From a virus (taxonomy: Duplodnaviria > Heunggongvirae > Uroviricota > Caudoviricetes): 8,797 bases of DNA. The notes beneath the pieces were generated by a model. The model saw only the letters and a program-made list of their open reading frames with translations, was not told where the DNA came from and did no database searches. Below are positions 1 to 8,797 of this stretch, one piece after another (the stretch's first letter is position 1; each line of letters starts with the position of its first letter). The translations under genes and the position numbers were made by a program. The stretch is taken from IMG/VR virus record IMGVR_UViG_2531839180_000002, positions 1-8,797 of that record. One strand, given 5' to 3'.

Positions 1-990
1 TTATGTGGATGAAATGTGGATGCCTCCTTTTAACGGATTAAGTGAAATTGCATCCTGGAGGAAATCAGGAGCGAGGTGCGCATAGGTCATAGTTTGCTGG
101 ATCGTGGCGTGCCCCATAATTCGCTGGAGCGTAAGTATATTTCCTCCATTAATCATAAAGTGAGCAGCAAAGGTATGGCGTAGAACATGTACAGCCTGTC
201 CTTTTGGTAGGTCTGGCTTAACACTGCGAAGCACCTTGCGATATTCCTCATAATTGACGTCAAACAAAAGGCCGGATTTCTTTGTTTTGATCTCACTAAC
301 AACTTCATCAGAGACAGGAATAATTCGAACTTTTCCGTTTTTAGTTTTGTTAAACGTCACGCGATTATTGATGATGTGTTCCGCGCGCAGATTTTTCGCT
401 TCTCCCCATCTCGCCCCAGTACTGAGACAAAGTAGCGTAATCCGCCGGGCATCACCGCTTACTGCATCCAGTAATTTGGCGATTTCTTCCGTGGTGAGAT
501 ACGTCATTTCGGGTGATTTTCGTTTCAAAGAGGGGAGGGCGCGGAGCGGATTTTCTCCGTGAAATTCCCCGGCATTTGCCAGGAGTGTAAACATTCCTCC
601 GAGATCCGACTCATCACGCCGAACAGTAGACTCTTTTACTCCCAAGGATAAACGGGAGCTTCGATAAGCGGCCATGAAACGAGCATTAATCTGGCTAACC
701 CTTGGATCATTCATTTCTTTGATGATTTTTTTCAACCTGGTTAGAACGCCGTTAGCATATGGCTTATTGCGTCCACCCAATTCCCACCATAACGGAAGCA
801 GATCTGAGAGATGACGTTGCTCTGTTGGCTTTTCAAGCCATTCCTTATCGTGCATGTGGCTGAGAACATAACGCTCAAAGGCCACTGCATCTGCCTTTTT
901 CTTAAAAATCCGCTGAATCCGACGTCCACTTCGGCCACGCGGTCTAACATCCACTTTATACCGTCCACCATCGAGCGCTTTAATTGCCAT
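1..990 (-). CDS. int: Phage tyrosine integrase (P2 Int-like site-specific recombinase), 329 aa
   Basis: Minus-strand ORF ending in TAA at 1-3. N-terminus MAIKALDGGRYKVDVRP resembles P2-family Int. Tyrosine recombinase boxes are visible: TGARWGE, HVLRHTFAAH and the catalytic Tyr in MTYAHL. Start chosen at ATG 988-990 because GGAGGG (complement of 998-1003) lies 7 nt upstream; the track ORF begins 11 codons further up at 1023. Confidence 0.92.
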   Translation of the reverse strand: MAIKALDGGRYKVDVRPRGRSGRRIQRIFKKKADAVAFERYVLSHMHDKEWLEKPTEQRHLSDLLPLWWELGGRNKPYANGVLTRLKKIIKEMNDPRVSQINARFMAAYRSSRLSLGVKESTVRRDESDLGGMFTLLANAGEFHGENPLRALPSLKRKSPEMTYLTTEEIAKLLDAVSGDARRITLLCLSTGARWGEAKNLRAEHIINNRVTFNKTKNGKVRIIPVSDEVVSEIKTKKSGLLFDVNYEEYRKVLRSVKPDLPKGQAVHVLRHTFAAHFMINGGNILTLQRIMGHATIQQTMTYAHLAPDFLQDAISLNPLKGGIHISST

Positions 991-1056
991 TGGCAAGCCC
1001 TCCGGTGAAACGAGGAAAGACATTTCCAGTTTGTAAAACGTAAGAATAATAAAGGG

Positions 1057-1359
1057 TTAGCCAATTTTCCTTTCGGATGGGGGTAAGTCCGTTGGCTCTT
1101 GCCCATAGTGTGCGAGAGCCGGAGCTATCTGCCCGGATTCAGGCGCAATTTTCCCAGTCATAAACCACAACGCATATTTCTCAAATCTGGGGTTGTTTAG
1201 TATTTGCTCAATTACTTCAGCATTAGGGATAGTTTTACCGCTTTCATATCTCCACAGAGCATCACGGTTTAAACCAAGCATTTTTGCTGTATCCGGGAGG
1301 CTAGTAAGTCTCTCGCTTTCACGCATGATTTTTATGCGCTCTCCAATAGTCATACGCAT
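1057..1359 (-). CDS. C: Immunity repressor, P2 C-like, about 100 aa
   Basis: Minus-strand ORF immediately upstream of int, same orientation as in P2 (C then int). C-terminal segment WFMTGKIAPESGQIAPALAHYGQ closely matches the P2 C repressor as I recall it. Start chosen at ATG (complement of 1357-1359) with GGAG 8 nt upstream; the track ORF starts at a non-ATG codon at 1374. Confidence 0.8.
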   Translation of the reverse strand: MRMTIGERIKIMRESERLTSLPDTAKMLGLNRDALWRYESGKTIPNAEVIEQILNNPRFEKYALWFMTGKIAPESGQIAPALAHYGQEPTDLPPSERKIG

Positions 1360-1454
1360 GTTGCAATTCTCCAACGTCTGTATTAATGTTTATACAAATG
1401 AGTTTGATTTGGGGCATCCGTCGCAAGAAATACCCCAAACAGGGAGATTATCAC
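1360..1454. promoter_or_regulatory. Divergent switch region between repressor and early operon (expected face-to-face promoters and operators by analogy with P2 Pe/Pc)
   Basis: 95-bp AT-rich interval between divergently oriented C and cox-like genes. Contains TATTAAT (1381-1387) and TTGATT (1404-1409) hexamer-like elements and AGGGAG (1441-1446) before the cox-like start. Exact promoter and operator positions cannot be fixed from sequence alone. Confidence 0.4.
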
Positions 1455-3084: not shown

Positions 3085-3326
3085 CCATTCTGGACTATAT
3101 CGCCGCCAATCCGGGGTGTAGCGGTGGAGAAATCGCCGCAGCACTGAATACCCCAACCACAGCCATTAATGCGGAGTTACGCCGACTCTGGCGCAGCGGT
3201 TCAGTCATAAGAAAAGAACGCAAAACAGGCGGTCGCTTTTCTTACCAGATAAACCCGATGCCGTTCGGGTGCGGCAATCCACTTACCAACATGTTTAACC
3301 AGCTACTGAAGGAAGCCAGAGCATGA
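3081..3326 (+). CDS. Small winged-helix-type putative DNA-binding protein, 81 aa
   Basis: ATGA overlap with the upstream gene; AGGAG at 3068-3072. N-terminal segment DYIAANPGCSGGEIAAALNTPTTAINAELRRLWRSGSV has the pattern of a winged helix-turn-helix. Inference from motif appearance only. Confidence 0.6.
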   Translation: MTILDYIAANPGCSGGEIAAALNTPTTAINAELRRLWRSGSVIRKERKTGGRFSYQINPMPFGCGNPLTNMFNQLLKEARA

Positions 3327-3622
3327 GCGCCATCAACCACCAGGAATTACGCGAACTGGCGATTGACCTGCAACGAATGGCAACGCATCAAAAATTACTG
3401 GCGTTTCGCGCAATGCTCTCGCCGTCTGCCGTGCTGGCACTGCTGGATGAGCTGGAGCACGCCAGAACCATGTCTCCAGCCATTCGCCTGACGCTCCGTC
3501 ATGAAATCGAGGATTTCTGCGCGACGTTGGAGGCACCAGGCGAACCGGAAACGCCGGAAGCAATACAGAAAGAGCTGCTGCAACGCATTGACAAGGTTTT
3601 TGATTTTTTTCTGAACCACTAA
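3323..3622 (+). CDS. Hypothetical early protein, 99 aa, acidic, predicted helical
   Basis: ATGA overlap with the upstream gene. Last of three translationally coupled ORFs (2881-3622). Confidence 0.6.
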   Translation: MSAINHQELRELAIDLQRMATHQKLLAFRAMLSPSAVLALLDELEHARTMSPAIRLTLRHEIEDFCATLEAPGEPETPEAIQKELLQRIDKVFDFFLNH

Positions 3623-3691
3623 GAAACCAGAACATGCACACACAAAAAAACCGCTTGCCATGCCGCAATCAGTCAGGTTACATTTCCGCTG

Positions 3692-3739
3692 CACCTCACA
3701 AAACGGGTGCCGGGTTTCGCAGCCTGCTGACTACACAAG
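3692..3739. repeat. Direct repeat copy 1 (CACCTCACA ... GTTTCGCAGC ... CTACACAAG)
   Basis: Shares the exact 10-mer GTTTCGCAGC (3714-3723 vs 3890-3899), the exact 9-mer CTACACAAG (3731-3739 vs 3926-3934) and a CACC(T)CACA block with copy 2, in the same order but with indels. Confidence 0.5.
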
Positions 3740-3744
3740 CGCAC

Positions 3745-3765
3745 AACCGCGCCAGCGGTTTTTTT
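3745..3765 (+). terminator. Candidate intrinsic terminator (AACCGC-GCCA-GCGGTT stem-loop followed by a T7 run)
   Basis: CCGC (3747-3750) pairs with GCGG (3755-3758) around a GCCA loop, extendable by two A-T pairs, then TTTTTTT (3759-3765). The stem is short, so this may be a partial or leaky terminator. An alternative fold pairs CGCACAA (3740-3746) with TTGTGCG (3764-3770). Confidence 0.35.
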
Positions 3766-3805
3766 GTGCGTACTGTATTGCCACGTTTTTTTCGCGTCAG
3801 AATTA

Positions 3806-3883
3806 TGGCGGGGCGTACGGGGCCGACTTCGGTCGGGCCGGGTTCTTGTGTAGCCGGTACTGCGAACCTCGTACGTCTCGCCA
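3806..3883 (+). ncRNA. Candidate structured RNA element, about 78 nt: 14-bp closing helix enclosing a cUUCGg tetraloop hairpin
   Basis: 3806-3819 (TGGCGGGGCGTACG) pairs antiparallel with 3870-3883 (CGTACGTCTCGCCA) as 12 Watson-Crick plus 2 G-U pairs, valid only on the plus-strand RNA. Inside, CCGAC-TTCG-GTCGG (3823-3836) is a C(UUCG)G tetraloop hairpin, and CCGG (3838-3841) can pair with CCGG (3854-3857). No RBS-supported ORF is present. Does not fit tRNA geometry. Confidence 0.3.
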
Positions 3884-3934
3884 CCCACAGTTTCGCAGCT
3901 CTGGATGGTGAGTTTTCACAACTTACTACACAAG
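3883..3934. repeat. Direct repeat copy 2 (CACCCACA GTTTCGCAGC ... CTACACAAG)
   Basis: See copy 1. The two copies bracket the terminator-like hairpin and the structured element, about 145 bp between them. Confidence 0.5.
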
Positions 3935-3944
3935 GGGCCACACC

Positions 3945-4175
3945 ATGGCAAACCGCAAACCACACCGCGCTATCGCGGAGCGTCGTCACATCCAGACTGA
4001 AATCAACCGCAGACTTTCCCGCGCATTCCGCGTCGCTAAAATCATGCACATCAATATGCTGCATGAGCGTAGCTGCGAACTTTCAAACCTCTACTCATCC
4101 GCTGTTTTCAGTTATCTGGCGGATGATCTGCGCGAGCTTCAGCAGCTCATCCAGCAGCAAAACAAACTCCATTAA
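3945..4175 (+). CDS. Hypothetical basic protein, 76 aa
   Basis: ATG at 3945 with AAGGGG (3932-3937) 7 nt upstream. Arg/Lys-rich N-terminal half, helical C-terminus. Function unknown. Confidence 0.6.
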   Translation: MANRKPHRAIAERRHIQTEINRRLSRAFRVAKIMHINMLHERSCELSNLYSSAVFSYLADDLRELQQLIQQQNKLH

Positions 4176-4247
4176 TTCCTGTTCCGGGCCTTTCCTGCAC
4201 CTTGCGGCGGGAGGCCTTCGCACATCTGTAACAAGAGGATTGCCGCA

Positions 4248-4613
4248 ATGATTCTCGCCAACGACTTTCTTGAATACCTGCTCAACACAGAACGTGATCT
4301 TGCCGCTCGCGTGCGTGATCGTTATGACATGTACCTGAAATCCCTGCCTGTACCGCAGCTCGCTGACGGAAAAATTGTTATTGATGGTCGCTACGTGATC
4401 GACAGCCATGAGGGAAATTACAGGCTTTACCGCATTGAAGGTGGCACCCCGTCCGTTATTGGCATTTACCAGCGCCCATCCTCTGCAATCGTCGATGTGA
4501 TTGCCGACAGCATCCGCATCACACATCGCCATGCCGACACAGAAAACACCGTGCTGGAAATTCAGCGGCTGGCTACAGTCTGCCGCGACACCCTGAATGG
4601 CATGACGAAGTAA
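4248..4613 (+). CDS. Hypothetical protein, 121 aa
   Basis: ATG at 4248 with AAGAGG (4233-4238). Ends 6 nt before the start of the replication gene. Function unknown. Confidence 0.6.
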   Translation: MILANDFLEYLLNTERDLAARVRDRYDMYLKSLPVPQLADGKIVIDGRYVIDSHEGNYRLYRIEGGTPSVIGIYQRPSSAIVDVIADSIRITHRHADTENTVLEIQRLATVCRDTLNGMTK

Positions 4614-4619
4614 ATCACT

Positions 4620-7442
4620 ATGACGGCAGAGTACATCAGGGACTGGCAACAACCGCGCCACGCAGTGGGGCGTGAAGGAACGGGGATCCCCGCTCCTGAA
4701 TCCGCGCTTTCCTCCTGGCTGGATGCCTACCGGGTAGAGAACGAGCGCCGCCAGGAAATGGCTGATGCGGCGTTCTCCGCCACGCCGCTGGGCAACCTGA
4801 TTAATAAAAGCCTGGACGCACAGGAAAAACAGGACAAAACCATCACACTGGCAGGAGACGCCAGAAAACAGGCACGCGGCGCGGTGGATGAAGCCATGGC
4901 CTCGCTGCGCCTGCTGCCGTCCTATCTGCGTGATCCGCTTATTCGCCACCTCTCCTTCCTGCGCAAAAAACAGGAAGCCGATCGCCGGAAAGACAAAAAG
5001 AGCTGGCAGGCTGAACGCTACGCGCGCGGAACCCTGCGCAAAATATTCGAACGTCTGGACCGCACCGACCACCGCTGGCTGACACCGGGTTATCGCTCCC
5101 TTGCAGGACGCGAACGCCTGGATGATTTGCTTTACCTGCCGCAGCTCAACAAGCACCAGATACAGACGCTGGCCACCATGACGGCGGCGATGTTCAGCAG
5201 CACCTTCGAAAAACTCTGCGATGGCTTTGGCGCGACTGATGGCGAGCTGACCATGGATGTAACCCTGAAGGCGTATCAGATGCTGGCCCGCATGGCGTTA
5301 CACCTGCACGCCATGCCTCCGCATTATGACGCACTGACAACAGATAAAGACCGGAGGAACGAACCGGACACGGAGCTGCTGCCGGGCGCAGTCCTTCGCC
5401 TGACCTGTGCGGAATGGTGGAAACGCAAACTGTGGCTGTTACGTTGCGAGTGGAGAGAAGAACAACTCCGCGCCGCCTGTCTGGTTTCCAGAAAAACATC
5501 GCCCTATCTGAGCCAGGACGCATTAAGCGAGTTTCGCGCACAGCGCGAGAAAACACGCGATTTCCTGAAAAGTTTCATGCTGGAAAACGAAGACGGGTTC
5601 ACGATTGATCTCGAGACAGTGTATTACGCGGGAGTAAGTAACCCGGTTCACCGTAAGGCAGAAATGATGGCCACCATGAAGGGTCTGGAACTTCTGGCCG
5701 AAGCCCGTGGCGACAAAGCGGTGTTTCTGACCGTCACCTGCCCGTCAAAATACCACGCCACAACAGAGAACGGTCATCCGAATCTCAAATGGAACGGGGC
5801 CACCATGCGCGACTCCAGCGATTACCTGGTTAACACGTTTTTTGCGGCGGTCCGCAAAAAACTGAACCGCGACGGCCTGCGCTGGTATGGCATCCGCACG
5901 GTGGAGCCTCACCATGACGGCACCGTGCACTGGCACATGATGGTCTTTGCTCATCCGGAAGAAATCGACAGCATCGTGGCCATCACCCGCGATATTGCCA
6001 TTCAGGAAGACCGCCACGAGCTGGGCGATGACATAACTCCGCGTTTTAAGGCGGAGTACGTCGACGGCTCAAAAGGCACGCCAACCAGCTACATCGCCAC
6101 CTACATCGGAAAGAACCTGGACAGCCGCGCCGTGGATGGCATCGACCCGAAAACGGGCAAGCCACGCGTTGACCACGAAACCGGAAAATCAATGGCCGAG
6201 AGTGTGGAACGCGCCATCGGCTGGGCGCGCCTTCACCGGGTCCGCCAGTTCCAGTTCTTTGGCATCCCCTCCCGTCAGGTATGGCGTGAACTCCGCCGCC
6301 TTGCCAGCCAGATGGCACGCAACCCGGAAGGCCCACAACGGCTGAAGGATGATGCAATGGATGCGGTACTCGCTGCCGCTGATGCCGGGTGTTTTGCCAC
6401 CTACATTGAGAAACAGGGCGGCGTACTTGTTCCACGCAAAGACTACCTGATTCGCACCGCTTACGACCTCGCAGATGAGCTGAACGATTACGGCGAACAG
6501 AGCGTACAGATTTACGGGATCTGGTCACCACTCATCGGGGAATCCTCCCGTGTGTGCACGCACCCGGATAACTGGAAGCTGGTAAGACGTAAACCGGAAG
6601 CGGAAGACAGCGCCCGCGAAAATGGTTTTGACCTTCAGGGCGGCCCAGCCGCCCCTTGGACTCGTGGCAATAACTGTCCCCGTGTACAGGAAACGGACAA
6701 CAACGGGACAGAACAGCCGGAAGAACGGCCAGCACCGTGGTCGCAGCTCCCTGACGGCGTTGAAGTGAACGAATGGATGCGCTCACTGAAACGGCACGAA
6801 CGCCGGGCGCTGATGCGTTCGCTTCGTGACAAACAGGCAAAAAACAGCCGTGATGAAATGCAGAGCTGGACACAGAGCCGCAAACAGCAGCGGCCTTTGC
6901 CTGATAACCACGAATTACTCGCTAAAGAATGGCGGGAGTCTGCTGAATCTCTCGGCCTGCATATCGGTGAACAGCAGATGCAGCACCTGTTACGGGGCGG
7001 CAGTCTGTACGTTGACGGCAGCATCATTGCACCGCAGGGATTTGAAATTGTACGCAAGCCGGATACCCGACCGGACAGCCGGATCACGCAGCTCTGGCAG
7101 CGCCTGAGCCGTAACCACGGCGTAAGCAGCACGGAGATCCGCCATAACCCGGTCGCCAGCTATCTGGAACAGCTGGGGGCATCAGACCCCGAAGCCGCCG
7201 CACGCCTGGCATCCACACTTCAGCAAGACCAGAACACCATGAAAACACCCGTTACCGTGCTTTCTGACATGCTGCGCGCCATCCGCGACGCAGAGCACGC
7301 GCAGAGAATCAGTGAAACTGCTGAACGCGCCCGCCGCAAAGCAGACCTGCTGCGGGGTGGCCTGACCAGCGGAAACAAAAAACAGACAGAAACGGGATTC
7401 ACAAATCCCGTAAATGAGCAAAAAACGCGCCGCGATATATGA
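4620..7442 (+). CDS. A: Rolling-circle replication initiator, HUH endonuclease of the P2 gpA / phiX174 gpA family, 940 aa
   Basis: HUH metal-binding motif in EPHHDGTVHWHMMVF (HWH at 5928-5936). Paired catalytic tyrosines plus lysine in SYIATYIGKN (Tyr codons at 6090-6092 and 6102-6104), i.e. the Y-x3-Y-x2-K signature. Sits at the end of the early operon as P2 A does. Long N- and C-terminal regions flank the catalytic core. Confidence 0.9.
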   Translation: MTAEYIRDWQQPRHAVGREGTGIPAPESALSSWLDAYRVENERRQEMADAAFSATPLGNLINKSLDAQEKQDKTITLAGDARKQARGAVDEAMASLRLLPSYLRDPLIRHLSFLRKKQEADRRKDKKSWQAERYARGTLRKIFERLDRTDHRWLTPGYRSLAGRERLDDLLYLPQLNKHQIQTLATMTAAMFSSTFEKLCDGFGATDGELTMDVTLKAYQMLARMALHLHAMPPHYDALTTDKDRRNEPDTELLPGAVLRLTCAEWWKRKLWLLRCEWREEQLRAACLVSRKTSPYLSQDALSEFRAQREKTRDFLKSFMLENEDGFTIDLETVYYAGVSNPVHRKAEMMATMKGLELLAEARGDKAVFLTVTCPSKYHATTENGHPNLKWNGATMRDSSDYLVNTFFAAVRKKLNRDGLRWYGIRTVEPHHDGTVHWHMMVFAHPEEIDSIVAITRDIAIQEDRHELGDDITPRFKAEYVDGSKGTPTSYIATYIGKNLDSRAVDGIDPKTGKPRVDHETGKSMAESVERAIGWARLHRVRQFQFFGIPSRQVWRELRRLASQMARNPEGPQRLKDDAMDAVLAAADAGCFATYIEKQGGVLVPRKDYLIRTAYDLADELNDYGEQSVQIYGIWSPLIGESSRVCTHPDNWKLVRRKPEAEDSARENGFDLQGGPAAPWTRGNNCPRVQETDNNGTEQPEERPAPWSQLPDGVEVNEWMRSLKRHERRALMRSLRDKQAKNSRDEMQSWTQSRKQQRPLPDNHELLAKEWRESAESLGLHIGEQQMQHLLRGGSLYVDGSIIAPQGFEIVRKPDTRPDSRITQLWQRLSRNHGVSSTEIRHNPVASYLEQLGASDPEAAARLASTLQQDQNTMKTPVTVLSDMLRAIRDAEHAQRISETAERARRKADLLRGGLTSGNKKQTETGFTNPVNEQKTRRDI
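7376..7414. repeat. 39-bp repeat copy 1 containing the palindrome ACGGGATT-caca-AATCCCGT; lies inside the 3' end of gene A
   Basis: Matches copy 2 at 32 of 39 positions. Palindrome arms at 7392-7399 and 7404-7411. Confidence 0.55.
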
Positions 7443-7518: not shown

Positions 7519-8478
7519 ATGAAAATTTGTATCGACGACGGCTCCACCAACATCAAGCTGGCATGGACTGAGAACGGCGAACGCCGCAACGCCATCAGCC
7601 CGAACAGCTTCAAGTCGGAATGGTCTGCGCCGTTCGGCGGCACGCAGCCCGCGAACTACATGCTTGATGGCGTGCGCTATGGTTTTGATCCGGTCAGCGA
7701 TCGCTTTGTCCAGACGACCGACACGCAATACCAGTACAGCGATGTGAATGTCATTGCCATTCATCACGCGCTGGTCAAATCAGGCATCACGCCACAGGAG
7801 GTGGATGTGGTTGTCACCCTGCCACTGAGCGAGTATTTCGACACAAACGCACAGCCGGACATGGCCAACATCAACCGCAAAAAAGCGAACGTTATGCGCC
7901 CGGTGGAGTACCAGAACGGCGAAGCATTCACTATCCGTAACGTACGGGTTATGCCTGAATCCATTCCGGCTGGCTTTAAGGCACTGGCTGACATGAGTCC
8001 GTTTGAATCCCTGCTGATTGTGGATTTAGGCGGAACCACGCTGGATGTGGCAAAGGTTCAGGGACAACTGGCAGGCATCAGCCAGGTGTTTTGCGATCCA
8101 CACGTAGGCGTTTCCCTGATGGCCGATGCCGTACTGTCGGTGATGGCCACTAACGGTATGCGTACCAGTCACCATATCGCCAGTACCATTATCGAACATC
8201 GCCACGATGAAGCCTGGTTGCACCAGCACATCCACAATGACGCGCATTACGCCAGCCTGATGGCGGTTATTCGTGAAAAGGAAGAAACACTGAAACAACG
8301 CGTGATCCGCGCGCTGGCGGGTTTTTCGGGTTACGGGCGGGTGATGGTTGTCGGTGGAGGGGCAGAAATTGTGGCACCCGCTATCCGCGAAGCCTGCGGT
8401 GTTAATGCGACTTTCATCGCGGACGGGGTGCCACAGTTTGCTCTGGTTAATGGGCTGTACGCAATGGACAAGGAGTAA
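7519..8478 (+). CDS. parM: Actin-like segregation ATPase ParM/StbA, 319 aa
   Basis: ATG at 7519 with AAGGA 8 nt upstream. Actin-fold signatures are visible: phosphate-1 DDGSTNIKL at the N-terminus, phosphate-2 IVDLGGTTLDV, adenosine motif VVGGGAE. Colinear resemblance to plasmid R1 ParM along the whole length, as I recall that sequence. Confidence 0.9.
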   Translation: MKICIDDGSTNIKLAWTENGERRNAISPNSFKSEWSAPFGGTQPANYMLDGVRYGFDPVSDRFVQTTDTQYQYSDVNVIAIHHALVKSGITPQEVDVVVTLPLSEYFDTNAQPDMANINRKKANVMRPVEYQNGEAFTIRNVRVMPESIPAGFKALADMSPFESLLIVDLGGTTLDVAKVQGQLAGISQVFCDPHVGVSLMADAVLSVMATNGMRTSHHIASTIIEHRHDEAWLHQHIHNDAHYASLMAVIREKEETLKQRVIRALAGFSGYGRVMVVGGGAEIVAPAIREACGVNATFIADGVPQFALVNGLYAMDKE

Positions 8479-8482
8479 ACCA

Positions 8483-8797
8483 ATGAGGTCACCAACCAGA
8501 CGGATAAGTTTCTATCTGAAGCCAGCCGCCGTCAAGAGTGAACAGGAGGCGTGCAATTACCTCGACAACCTGCCAGCCTCGGAACGCAGCCGCGCACAAC
8601 GCGCGGCCTTTCTGGCGGGACTGGCACTCATAAAACGTGCCCCCGCACTGGCGTATTCGCTGGCAGAATGGTCAGAAGACGAAATACGGATGCCATCGCT
8701 GCCAGTGCAGCCTGAAAAACAGGCGCAACCAGCAACAGCCAGCGCCACCCCTATGCAGCAGGTGAAAAAGAATATTCAGGCGTTTTTTCCAGAATAA
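8483..8797 (+). CDS. parR: Partition adaptor ParR/StbB (ribbon-helix-helix centromere-binding protein), 104 aa
   Basis: ATG at 8483, 4 nt after the parM stop, with AGGAG (8471-8475). N-terminal region RRISFYLKPAAV...LPASERSRAQRAAFLAGLAL parallels R1 ParR (TIAFKLNPDV...IPQGERSRLNRAALTAGLAL). Ends with TAA at the last base of the window; the track ORF starts upstream at 8348 inside parM. Confidence 0.85.
   Translation: MRSPTRRISFYLKPAAVKSEQEACNYLDNLPASERSRAQRAAFLAGLALIKRAPALAYSLAEWSEDEIRMPSLPVQPEKQAQPATASATPMQQVKKNIQAFFPE

Follow-up and report, generated by a model that had tools for sequence, protein, structure and literature searches.

The question raised by this locus was what is encoded by positions 3623-3944 of the window (the whole stretch of DNA that was analysed, 8,797 nucleotides in length), which an earlier note had described as a GC-rich non-coding gap in a tightly packed operon, carrying a strand-specific RNA structure. 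The tight packing of the genes was found as described, although a second gap of 72 nt is present at 4176-4247, and the GC content was found to be raised only mildly in the gap (0.54-0.56), with 65% GC in the C4-type RNA listed below. In public records the stretch was found to carry varying annotations, namely 'hypothetical protein', 'transcriptional regulator', 'ash family protein' or a reverse-strand ORF. The interval was concluded, with good confidence, to be an RNA immunity module of the P4/P1 type belonging to a P88-like (P2-family) prophage and acting by the mechanism proposed below. As judged from its sequence, the module is homologous to the seqA-CI-seqC region of P4 and to the c4 region of P1/P7. 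Of the two well-known phage regulatory RNAs present there, one is a leader of the IsrK type and the other an antisense RNA of the C4 type; the most likely role of the pair is to silence, in the prophage state, an anti-repressor gene together with the replication genes further downstream. The support in hand consists of homology, structure, complementarity and its co-variation, the position of one target on a ribosome binding site, and the conservation of an open frame across the interval. The features of the region were as follows.

3634-4251, plus strand: eta-like 'bridge' ORF of 205 codons (ORF list, Pfam Phage_ASH, conserved frame)
3655-3684, plus strand: sigma-70 promoter-like site TTGCCA-18-TACATT, analogue of P4 PLE (9-of-12 consensus match)
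3691-3765, plus strand: IsrK-type leader RNA, corresponding to the P4 'seqA' region (Rfam RF01394)
3691-3710, 3711-3726 and 3745-3765, plus strand: hairpin 1, hairpin 2 and, after an unpaired linker, the intrinsic terminator of the IsrK leader (fold)
3716-3722, plus strand: a1 target TTCGCAG, the complement of a', located in the loop and the 3' arm of IsrK hairpin 2
3731-3739, plus strand: b1 target CTACACAAG, the complement of b', located in the single-stranded linker of the IsrK leader
3801-3888, plus strand: C4-type antisense RNA, homologue of P1 c4 and P4 CI (Rfam RF01695)
3806-3822 with 3867-3883, 3823-3836, 3837-3858 and 3884-3887, plus strand: closing helix, UUCG hairpin, second hairpin and CCCA tail of C4 (fold)
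3845-3853, plus strand: b' specificity segment CUUGUGUAG, part of the 12-nt loop on the second C4 hairpin
3860-3866, plus strand: a' specificity segment CUGCGAA, at the single-stranded C4 junction
3892-3898, plus strand: a2 target TTCGCAG, just past the C4 3' end, part of the equivalent of P4 'seqC'
3926-3934, plus strand: b2 target CTACACAAG, running into the SD AAGGGG (3932-3937) of the epsilon-like gene
3945-4175, plus strand: epsilon-like 'derepression' (putative anti-repressor) gene of 76 aa, the first gene under the proposed C4 control (Pfam Derepression)
4248-4613, plus strand: orf121, whose start overlaps the stop of the bridge ORF (ATGA 4248-4251)
4620-7442, plus strand: replication gene A, next after ORF 4248-4613

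The C4-type RNA was found to match RF01695 on the plus strand with 83.2 bits against a threshold of 45 (E 1e-15, model positions 1-87 of 87), and P4 CI scored 74.9 bits in the same covariance search. The cUUCGg hairpin at 3823-3836 was present, as was the 14-bp helix of 3806-3819 with 3870-3883 containing two G-U pairs, both of which had been noticed earlier; the minimum-energy version of the helix was longer, at 17 bp, with three G-U pairs (3811-3878, 3813-3876 and 3820-3869). The plus strand of 3801-3888 folded at -47.7 kcal/mol (z = -4.46), which none of 200 shuffles equalled, and the minus strand at -33.6 kcal/mol (z = -1.92), which 8 of 200 equalled, in agreement with the strand asymmetry claimed before. 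The folding of the whole gap (3623-3960) gave z = -3.6. The expectation of a functional plus-strand RNA was thus upheld, but not as a single feature, since two separate RNA genes were found (IsrK-type at 3691-3765 and C4-type at 3801-3888), and better folding than that of shuffled controls was obtained for the C4 part but not for the IsrK part alone.

Among 55 distinct C4 sequences, 90.5% of the cells were found to be paired, against 33-55% in the slid controls. Double-sided changes were found in 15 of the 27 C4 pairs (199 cells), a level reached by 0 of 500 shuffles, a control that overstates the significance because the homologous sequences are related. The homologues had been retrieved by a pattern fixing hairpin 2 and the UUCG loop, and the invariance of the hairpin 2 stem and of the tetraloop is uninformative for that reason. 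Compensatory base changes in relatives were found both in the helix pairs of C4 and in hairpin 1 of the IsrK leader. An unpaired CCCA (3884-3887) directly follows the C4 helix on its 3' side, and its CC is conserved in at least 90% of the sequences. An RNA of the C4 family is expected to be matured from a longer transcript, with RNase P acting at the 5' end and a tRNA-like CCA at the 3' end. By analogy with P1 and P4, whose ends we take to set the mature ends here, the mature RNA probably covers about 3806-3886. A scan of the window for tRNA and tmRNA genes with ARAGORN found none.

The IsrK-type leader was found to match RF01394 over the full length of the model at 3691-3765 on the plus strand (64.1 bits against a threshold of 50), so that both RNA families lie well over their curated thresholds. 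Its intrinsic terminator, seen before as a terminator-like hairpin and present here, consists of a 6-bp stem (3745-3760, AACCGC/GCCA/GCGGTT) and a T7 run (3759-3765). The folding of the IsrK part alone was no better than that of shuffles (z = -1.16), and its support is therefore taken from the covariance model and from covariation, with compensatory changes found in 6 of the 6 pairs of hairpin 1 among relatives. Among 17 diverse loci scanned, isrK or c4-a1b1 was found upstream of C4 in most. The c4-a1b1 motif (Rfam RF03163) scored 20.9 bits at the present locus, below the gathering score of 46.7. It was observed that functional equivalents of a1 and b1 are present despite this sub-threshold score, the region being claimed by the isrK model.

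The promoter-like site at 3655-3684 was found to end 7 nt upstream of the start of the IsrK model, and its P4 counterpart (TTGCCT-18-TATAGT) likewise ends 7 nt before the isrK match. The site was nearly invariant across 28 P88-like loci and is presumed, by analogy with P4, to be the constitutive promoter of the immunity transcript. A second promoter-like site at 3778-3806 (TTGCCA-17-AATTAT) was rejected as a likely chance match, because its start site would fall in the C4 helix and because, in about half of the P88-like relatives, its -35 hexamer begins with C instead of T.

The segments a' (7 nt) and b' (9 nt) of C4 were each found to have exact complements twice, in the IsrK leader and downstream of C4. 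Within the window, CTACACAAG was found only at b1, at b' (as the reverse complement) and at b2, and TTTCGCAGC had exact matches only at a1 and a2, with one 1-mismatch match elsewhere. The pairing of b' with b2 reaches 3843-3853 on the C4 side with two G-U pairs; the predicted duplex (-20.4 kcal/mol, 0.7% of shuffled targets as good) covers 3925-3940. With b2 running into the SD (3932-3937) and the ATG following at 3945, the second b target falls on the ribosome binding site of the epsilon-like gene, the first one after C4. The duplex of a' with a2 comprises 7 bp only, and 7% of shuffled targets were equally good. In other phages, 40 specificity types were distinguished, each being a distinct (b', a') pair, and a cognate exact complement of at least 7 nt was found for a1 in 39 of 40 types, for a2 in 39 of 40, for b1 in 29 of 40 and for b2 in 32 of 40; for non-cognate pairs a complement was found in 1-3% only. 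At the level of sequence, antisense and target segments change together across the 40 specificity types. The P88-like group alone contained 11 of these types, and the variation among its loci was concentrated at six cassettes (a', b', a1, b1, a2 and b2). The segments a' and b' assort independently, with many heteroimmune specificities. The earlier reading had recognised neither that both RNAs are known genes nor that the main point of the region is the antisense pairing of C4 with two pairs of targets.

The ORF at 3945-4175 was found to match Pfam Derepression (PF25738) just over the threshold (29.2 bits against 27) and to share 29% identity with P4 epsilon over 66 aa (E 2e-8), and its P88 counterpart is annotated as 'derepression protein'. 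It is accordingly regarded as a likely homologue of P4 epsilon and a putative anti-repressor. A pN/pS of 0.41 was obtained together with a third-position excess, and the gene is under purifying selection. When the epsilon-like protein, the bridge ORF and ORFs nearby were scanned against NCBIfam, the first four gave no matches.

The bridge ORF was found to start 11 nt past the stop of ORF 3323-3622, with its ATG (3634) upstream of the -35 hexamer of the internal promoter (3655), and to span the IsrK leader, C4 and the whole epsilon-like gene, relative to which it lies in the +1 frame. A start upstream of the internal promoter and a span across both RNAs were also found in the P88-like, Rha-type and P4-like groups. 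The predicted product matched Pfam Phage_ASH (PF10554) marginally (26.4 bits against a threshold of 26, aa 16-109), and the equivalent old 'cI' ORF of P4 scored 59.7 bits. The pN/pS of 1.22 indicates no amino-acid constraint on the ORF, by which its reading as an ordinary protein gene was ruled out. Its frame was found to be conserved: over 3634-3944 in 28 loci there was 1 stop in the bridge frame against 45 and 70 in the other two frames, and the +1 frame of 23 distinct epsilon-like ORFs contained zero stops where about 2 per sequence are expected. The spacing differences between groups were multiples of 3, the ATGA stop/start junction was kept with three different downstream genes, and a conserved AUG at 3805 was in frame with the ORF. 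The nesting known from eta/kil, in which the C-terminal part is the first downstream gene in the same frame, was absent, the bridge frame being +1 and ending at the start of the next gene.

The conserved open frame was counted as evidence that the bridge ORF is translated. The description of the interval as non-coding, with no ORF supported by a ribosome binding site, was therefore half right, given that a 205-codon ORF with a conserved frame spans it. The earlier note had further set translation of a protein from this interval against a functional RNA; the interval is probably translated, and the RNA function is left intact, because RNA and translation coexist in the IsrK-C4 family. Record NC_049391 labels the ORF a 'transcriptional regulator', and the PGAP annotation calls it an 'ash family protein'. 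The reverse-strand ORFs 3696-4064 and 3673-3888 were unsupported as genes, and the family search gave no matches for them.

A mechanism is proposed in which several steps are inferred: that the promoter is used, that the RNA is processed, that termination depends on Rho, that IsrK serves as a decoy and that translation prevents termination. Transcription from the constitutive promoter at 3655-3684 would start at about 3691, and would for the most part stop at the intrinsic terminator (3745-3765); the product would be a short RNA of the IsrK type with a1 and b1 on it. Read-through transcripts would contain C4 (about 3806-3886), which would be excised as a stable tRNA-like RNA, and its a' and b' would pair with a2 and b2 on the read-through mRNA. 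As b2 overlaps the SD of the epsilon-like gene, translation of that gene would be blocked. The untranslated C-rich mRNA would then probably be terminated by Rho, as suggested by analogy and by the C/G ratio of 1.5-1.8 in the region weighed for this, and orf121 and replication gene A would consequently be silent from the internal promoter in the lysogen. The a1 and b1 sequences on the abundant IsrK RNA would act as a second binding site, a decoy tuning the amount of free C4. During lytic growth, transcripts from the early promoter would carry AUG 3634, and ribosomes on the bridge ORF, crossing the terminator, C4 and a2/b2, would keep these structures from forming and would be coupled to orf121 and A. 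Early transcription would thereby be insensitive to the immunity RNA. Such translation-based insensitivity of early transcripts was shown for P4 eta (PMC10111431).

Two readings that would dispense with a regulatory RNA were weighed against this one. It is highly improbable that the interval is simply protein-coding, for an 'Ash family protein' or 'transcriptional regulator', with the RNA structures incidental: ORF 3634-4251 does exist, has a Phage_ASH match at threshold, is annotated in some records and keeps its frame, but its pN/pS is 1.22, the variation sits in six short, mutually complementary cassettes while the stems change by compensatory substitutions, two covariance models score far over threshold, and the Phage_ASH family itself also covers the experimentally defined CI RNA of P4. 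That the inverted repeats, which are present in the DNA, form a DNA-level element such as an operator, origin or recombination site is barely conceivable, as the helix is specific to one strand through its three G-U pairs (-47.7 kcal/mol on the plus strand, -33.6 kcal/mol on the minus strand), the covariation includes G-C to G-U changes, and there is a direct relation to the SD sequence. The argument made earlier against a DNA-level protein binding site was in this way borne out by the strand-specific fold, the covariation and the SD relation.

Two further readings accept the RNAs and differ on their role. A positive control of the Gifsy-1 type, in which the module would be mainly an induction trigger and not an immunity lock, is compatible with the immunity-module reading and was judged rather unlikely as the main function. 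In Gifsy-1, IsrK and the next stable RNA (STnc1160/orf45) were studied experimentally, translation of anrP was raised more than 100-fold with IsrK in trans, and the isrK promoter was required for prophage induction (PMC4825925); the window likewise has the conserved AUG 3805 in frame with a long ORF, and IsrK sequences complementary to C4. However, the frame from AUG 3805 crosses the whole epsilon-like gene out of frame, where orf45 instead stops at the start of the next gene, the SD of the epsilon-like gene is itself covered by b2, so that repression by C4 would be expected, and the layout, with its open upstream frame and epsilon-like gene, is nearer to P4 than to Gifsy-1. A main role in conflict between mobile elements, in which a cassette taken from a satellite would let the C4 of a helper-type phage silence incoming P4-like satellites or related phages of the same specificity, or let its epsilon-like protein derepress rival P2-like prophages, is improbable. 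A defensive role of IsrK-C4 systems in non-P4 prophages was suggested earlier (PMC3632133), a P4 epsilon-like gene in the P2-like prophage Sp13 was already noted (PMC2669165), and the numerous heteroimmune specificities with independently assorting a' and b' would fit such a role; but 0 P4-like elements shared both a' and b' with any P88-like phage in a limited sample of loci, and the targets of each module lie in its own transcript, which is a sufficient explanation for them.

For the P88-like phages a broader reading is offered tentatively, as possible and somewhat short of probable. A satellite-type cassette would lie inside a 205-codon bridge ORF selected only for openness, whose translation would let lytic transcription ignore the C4 lock; the immunity/epsilon cassette of P4 would have been adopted by a helper-type phage as a second, RNA-based immunity layer controlling the phage's replication gene, with at least 11 specificities, possibly by way of helper-satellite conflict. 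If so, the bridge ORF would be the translational link from the upstream early genes to orf121 and replication gene A. Being unconstrained yet conserved in frame, the bridge ORF is a clean candidate for translation that serves as a pure anti-termination device.

The immunity-module reading gives a concrete, testable function to a stretch left blank or mis-annotated in public records. A P88-like P2-family prophage with the module was found in about 21% of complete E. coli genomes. The reading suggests how P2-family prophages of the P88/Sp13 type may control an epsilon-type anti-repressor and the replication gene, and it bears on the inducibility of some such prophages whose repressor lacks a cleavage motif. 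The co-varying a'/b' specificities would represent a natural set of orthogonal antisense/target pairs.

In comparison with known systems, the immunity region of P4 contains PLE, seqA, CI RNA/seqB, seqC and nested eta/kil, followed by epsilon, orf151, orf106 and alpha, and its immunity mechanism is described in PMC10111431 and PMC3632133. When P4 was run through the same searches, the same two Rfam families were found in the same order, strand and promoter-to-IsrK geometry. Two sets of targets were found in both systems, the second b target lying in each on the SD of the gene that comes next, and both have a long Phage_ASH ORF running from upstream of the internal promoter across the RNAs, followed by an epsilon-family gene and a replication gene. 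Unlike P4, which is a satellite, the phage that carries the module here belongs to the P2 family, is of the helper type and has a C repressor/Cox switch of its own, the C repressor being ORF 1057-1374 on the minus strand. The kil gene is absent here and the epsilon-like gene directly follows a2/b2. The spanning ORF is not in frame with this first downstream gene, runs over its full length and stops at the start of the gene after it. For replication a P2-type A protein is encoded in place of the P4 alpha primase, and the specificity sequences differ.

The order of elements in Gifsy-1 matches the one proposed here: an IsrK RNA, transcribed from a promoter of its own and ending in a leaky terminator, comes first, then a stable RNA produced by processing and containing a conserved AUG, then an anti-repressor gene. 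In both, conservation is seen at the nucleotide level but not in the amino acids of the overlapping ORF (PMC4825925). In Gifsy-1, however, orf45 is short and ends at the anrP start, and the upstream frame is closed in Gifsy-like loci; the IsrK effect supported there is activation in trans and not a decoy, and the anti-repressor is of a different family (PMC4825925). The prophage Sp13 of E. coli O157 Sakai is likewise a P2-family prophage with an epsilon homologue, and it was unexpectedly mitomycin C-inducible though its repressor is without a cleavage motif (PMC2669165); the description of Sp13 in that paper does not contain the RNA module.

The immI c4 region of P1/P7 also contains a C4-family RNA (reviewed in PMC12197685), with two unpaired recognition segments and target pairs upstream and downstream. 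The genes controlled in P1, which was compared by description only, are icd and ant1/2, in place of the epsilon-like gene found here. In P1/P7 the downstream pair reportedly covers the ribosome binding site, so that no anti-repressor is made, and sequence differences in the recognition segments are said to cause heteroimmunity. The C1 repressor of P1 acts on the promoter, and to our knowledge no IsrK-type terminated leader was described there as a separate sRNA. Phages P4 and P1 are already known to have this system, and the present locus, a clear but ordinary further example, leaves the established view of C4/CI-type immunity as it was.

The window corresponds to the early region of a P2-family prophage; in the stretch queried, identity was 97.7% with Xuanwuvirus P88_4B11 and 88% with phage P88. 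The genes were found in the following order:

1-1023, minus strand, integrase
1057-1374, minus strand, HTH repressor
1386-1781, Cox-like gene, followed by several small early genes and then by the RNA interval
3945-4175, 76-aa ORF (epsilon-like), after the RNA interval and followed by a 121-aa ORF (orf121)
4620-7442, GPA-type replication protein (gene A), after the 121-aa ORF
downstream of the replication protein gene, ParM-type partition genes

The replication protein (940 aa) contained the GPA domain only at residues 179-503, and its C-terminal ~440 residues were without Pfam assignment. A ParM-type actin-like segregation protein was found at 7519-8478 (Pfam StbA_N, E 1e-82; ParM_N, E 1e-68) followed by a 'partition protein' at 8348-8797, both directly 3' of gene A. 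The partition genes hint at a possible plasmid state for this P2-family phage, a lifestyle known from P4.

The whole window was scanned with the Rfam models and two strong full-length matches were found, both on the plus strand and exactly over the features that an earlier note had described in the RNA interval. A sub-threshold c4-a1b1 match overlapped the isrK match, and no tRNA or tmRNA was found in the window.

3655-3684, promoter-like site TTGCCA-18-TACATT, ending 7 nt 5' of the isrK model start
3691-3765, plus strand, isrK (RF01394), 64.1 bits against a gathering score of 50
3801-3888, plus strand, C4 antisense RNA (RF01695), 83.2 bits against a gathering score of 45

The terminator-like hairpin with a T7 run (3745-3765) and the cUUCGg hairpin (3823-3836) were both present as claimed, and the long helix was also present, its length being 17 bp (3806-3822 with 3867-3883, three G-U pairs) and not 14 bp. 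By the extent of the isrK match, the 'terminator' forms the 3' end of an IsrK-type leader RNA; the C4 match takes in the tetraloop hairpin as well as the long helix, which make up the body of a C4-type antisense RNA. Folding of 3801-3888 gave -47.7 kcal/mol for the plus strand (z = -4.46; none of 200 shuffles was as good) and -33.6 kcal/mol for the minus strand (z = -1.92), and the strand asymmetry is therefore real. The reading as a functional plus-strand RNA was right, its known identity having been missed.

A second sigma-70-like match, TTGCCA-17-AATTAT, was found at 3778-3806, its -10 hexamer falling within AAUUAUGG, a conserved stretch at the 5' end of C4; the P4-like loci contained GATAAT in place of this hexamer. 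The -35 hexamer varies among relatives, so the site is probably a chance match; the A/T-rich block beside the conserved AUG at the C4 5' end is conserved all the same.

The C4 RNA was found to contain two recognition segments, and their exact complements were present twice on the same strand, within the IsrK leader and just downstream of C4:

3845-3853, b' (CUUGUGUAG), in the 12-nt loop of C4 hairpin 2
3860-3866, a' (CUGCGAA), in the unpaired junction after C4 hairpin 2
3716-3722, a1, within the IsrK leader, complement of a'
3731-3739, b1, within the IsrK leader, complement of b'
3892-3898, a2, just downstream of C4, complement of a'
3926-3934, b2, just downstream of C4, complement of b'

In the whole window, the 9-mer CTACACAAG occurred only at b1, b' (as reverse complement) and b2, and exact matches to TTTCGCAGC only at a1 and a2. 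The ORF that starts at 3945 has the Shine-Dalgarno AAGGGG (3932-3937), into which b2 extends. A b'-b2 duplex of -20.4 kcal/mol was predicted over 3925-3940 and was equalled by only 0.7% of shuffled targets, whereas the a'-a2 duplex of 7 bp is weaker evidence alone because 7% of shuffled targets equalled it.

A degenerate C4 core pattern was searched on viral contigs and 120 loci with 54 distinct C4 sequences were found; pairs were counted on 55 sequences, these 54 and P4. In this alignment 90.5% of the cells were paired, against 33-55% with the partners slid, and double-sided changes were found in 15 of 27 C4 pairs (199 cells), a covariation reached by 0 of 500 shuffles. The search pattern had fixed the hairpin 2 stem and the UUCG loop, so invariance there carries no information. 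The covariation between antisense and target is more telling than the pairing within C4. Among 40 specificity types (distinct b', a' pairs), an exact complement of the cognate segment, 7 nt or longer, was found at the expected offset for a1 and a2 in 39 each, for b1 in 29 and for b2 in 32; the non-cognate combinations gave 1-3%.

Across 28 P88-like loci, 3634-3944 was almost invariant outside the six cassettes (a', b', a1, b1, a2 and b2), which varied in concert and formed at least 11 specificities. The changes in the C4 closing helix were compensatory, and compensatory changes were also seen in IsrK hairpin 1; in IsrK hairpin 2 the stem was kept and the loop (a1) was variable. Most of the 17 diverse loci scanned contained isrK or c4-a1b1 upstream of C4. 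The a' and b' segments were found to assort independently (P88-like loci L017, L023 and L040 against the window; L018 and L044), a' ACUGCGAA being combined with four different b' sequences, which suggests that recombination shuffles the specificity cassettes. Some viral contigs contained two IsrK-C4 modules of differing specificity, in tandem 660 nt apart in L008 (4574-5421) and 870 nt apart in L045 (7050 and 7919), up to ~8 kb apart in L063 (266-463 and 8633-8720) and at 8624 and 10191 in L106. Other Rfam matches near the module in related loci were TwoAYGGAY RNA, int-alpA RNA (twice) and naRNA4 (L020 2832-2951; L066 1914-1980; L019 7978-8039; L063 14193-14270).

The 76-aa ORF matched Pfam Derepression (29.2 bits against a threshold of 27) and P4 epsilon (29% identity over 66 residues, E 2e-8). 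Its pN/pS of 0.41 and third-position excess (55 against 31 and 28) indicate that the gene is under purifying selection. The most negative GC skew of the window (-0.23 to -0.15; C/G 1.5-1.8) was found at 3901-4350, a stretch that takes in this gene with the spacer that follows and would fit a site of Rho loading.

The description of the interval as non-coding needs correction, since it is spanned by a 205-codon ORF (3634-4251, the bridge ORF) whose frame is conserved and whose protein is not. It matched Pfam Phage_ASH at threshold (26.4 against 26), and the old P4 'cI' ORF, which covers the CI RNA, matched it at 59.7 bits. In the stretch shared with the epsilon-like gene its pN/pS was 1.22 in its own frame, and no codon periodicity was found in its linkers. 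The bridge ORF is not conserved as a protein, and four lines of evidence indicate a conserved reading frame. Over 3634-3944 in 28 loci, its frame contained 1 stop; the other two contained 45 and 70, which appear and vanish at many variable positions. Among 23 distinct epsilon-like ORFs, the +1 frame contained 0 stops and the +2 frame 75, with ~2 stops per sequence expected in the +1 frame from synonymous randomisation. The bridge ORF ended in ATGA, overlapping the next gene's start, also after replacement of that gene (three different next genes), and indels of 14 and 4 nt compensate, keeping the frame. The a1-C4 spacing differed among open-frame groups by 6, 9, 30, 36 and 78 nt, all multiples of three, whereas closed-frame groups differed by other amounts. 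The spacer of 72 nt that separates the epsilon-like gene's stop from the next gene (4176-4247) varied strongly among relatives (indels of 1, 3, 4 and 14 nt), the bridge frame and ATGA junction being usually restored. The Pfam 'Ash protein family' PF10554 matched the translated IsrK/C4 stretch in the window (3634-3960) and in P4 (L123, 8168-8584), and the family is therefore largely a model of a translated RNA-gene region (eta-type ORF) and not of a conventional protein domain.

A constitutive promoter would give a short terminated IsrK RNA, and read-through would give a precursor from which C4 is cut out; we infer this processing from P1 and P4, and the unpaired CCCA after the helix fits an RNase P substrate. 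The a' and b' segments would pair with a2 and b2, whose complementarity and position are observed directly, and by masking the Shine-Dalgarno C4 would repress the epsilon-like anti-repressor gene. The untranslated mRNA is C-rich and G-poor (C/G 1.5-1.8 over 3920-4200) and, by analogy with P4 timm, would probably be terminated by Rho before orf121 and A. The a1 and b1 segments in the IsrK RNA may be a second site titrating or guiding C4; the IsrK effect demonstrated in Gifsy-1 is activation in trans (PMC4825925). Transcripts from the early promoter would include the AUG at 3634; the conserved frame and the P4 precedent suggest that translating the bridge ORF may override the C4 lock.

Of 5426 complete E. 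coli genomes, 1153 contained the module, in most cases without annotation, and no description of it in P88-like phages was found in the literature. In NC_049391 (4635-5252) the 205-aa spanning ORF is called 'transcriptional regulator' and the epsilon-like gene is omitted, whereas P88 contains the annotated epsilon-like gene and a reverse-strand hypothetical protein across C4 (4556-4744, minus strand). In PGAP the region is blank or 'ash family protein', and the RNAs are annotated in none of these public records.

Phage P4 was analysed with the same tools as the reference system. The isrK model matched its seqA leader and terminator (8692-8615, minus strand) and the C4 model its CI RNA (8507-8420), and, as in the window, 7 nt separate the end of a promoter-like site (PLE) from the isrK match. 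The b2-type target of P4 lies on the Shine-Dalgarno of the first downstream gene, kil, whereas that of the window lies on that of the epsilon-like gene; kil is followed in P4 by epsilon ('helper derepression protein'), then by two small ORFs and by alpha, the replication gene. The eta of P4 is in frame with kil, whereas the bridge ORF is in the +1 frame relative to the gene that comes first downstream and runs through that gene's entire length. The c4 of P1/P7 blocks anti-repressor synthesis at the ribosome binding site (PMC12197685), and experimental work has been done on a further member, the isrK-orf45-anrP locus of Gifsy-1 (PMC4825925). A P4 epsilon-like gene was noted in Sp13, a P2-like prophage of O157 Sakai whose unexpected inducibility has been tentatively connected with this gene (PMC2669165). 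The element belongs to a family described since the 1990s and detected with curated models, and what it adds to the textbook account is confined to the helper-phage context and the out-of-frame position of the bridge ORF.
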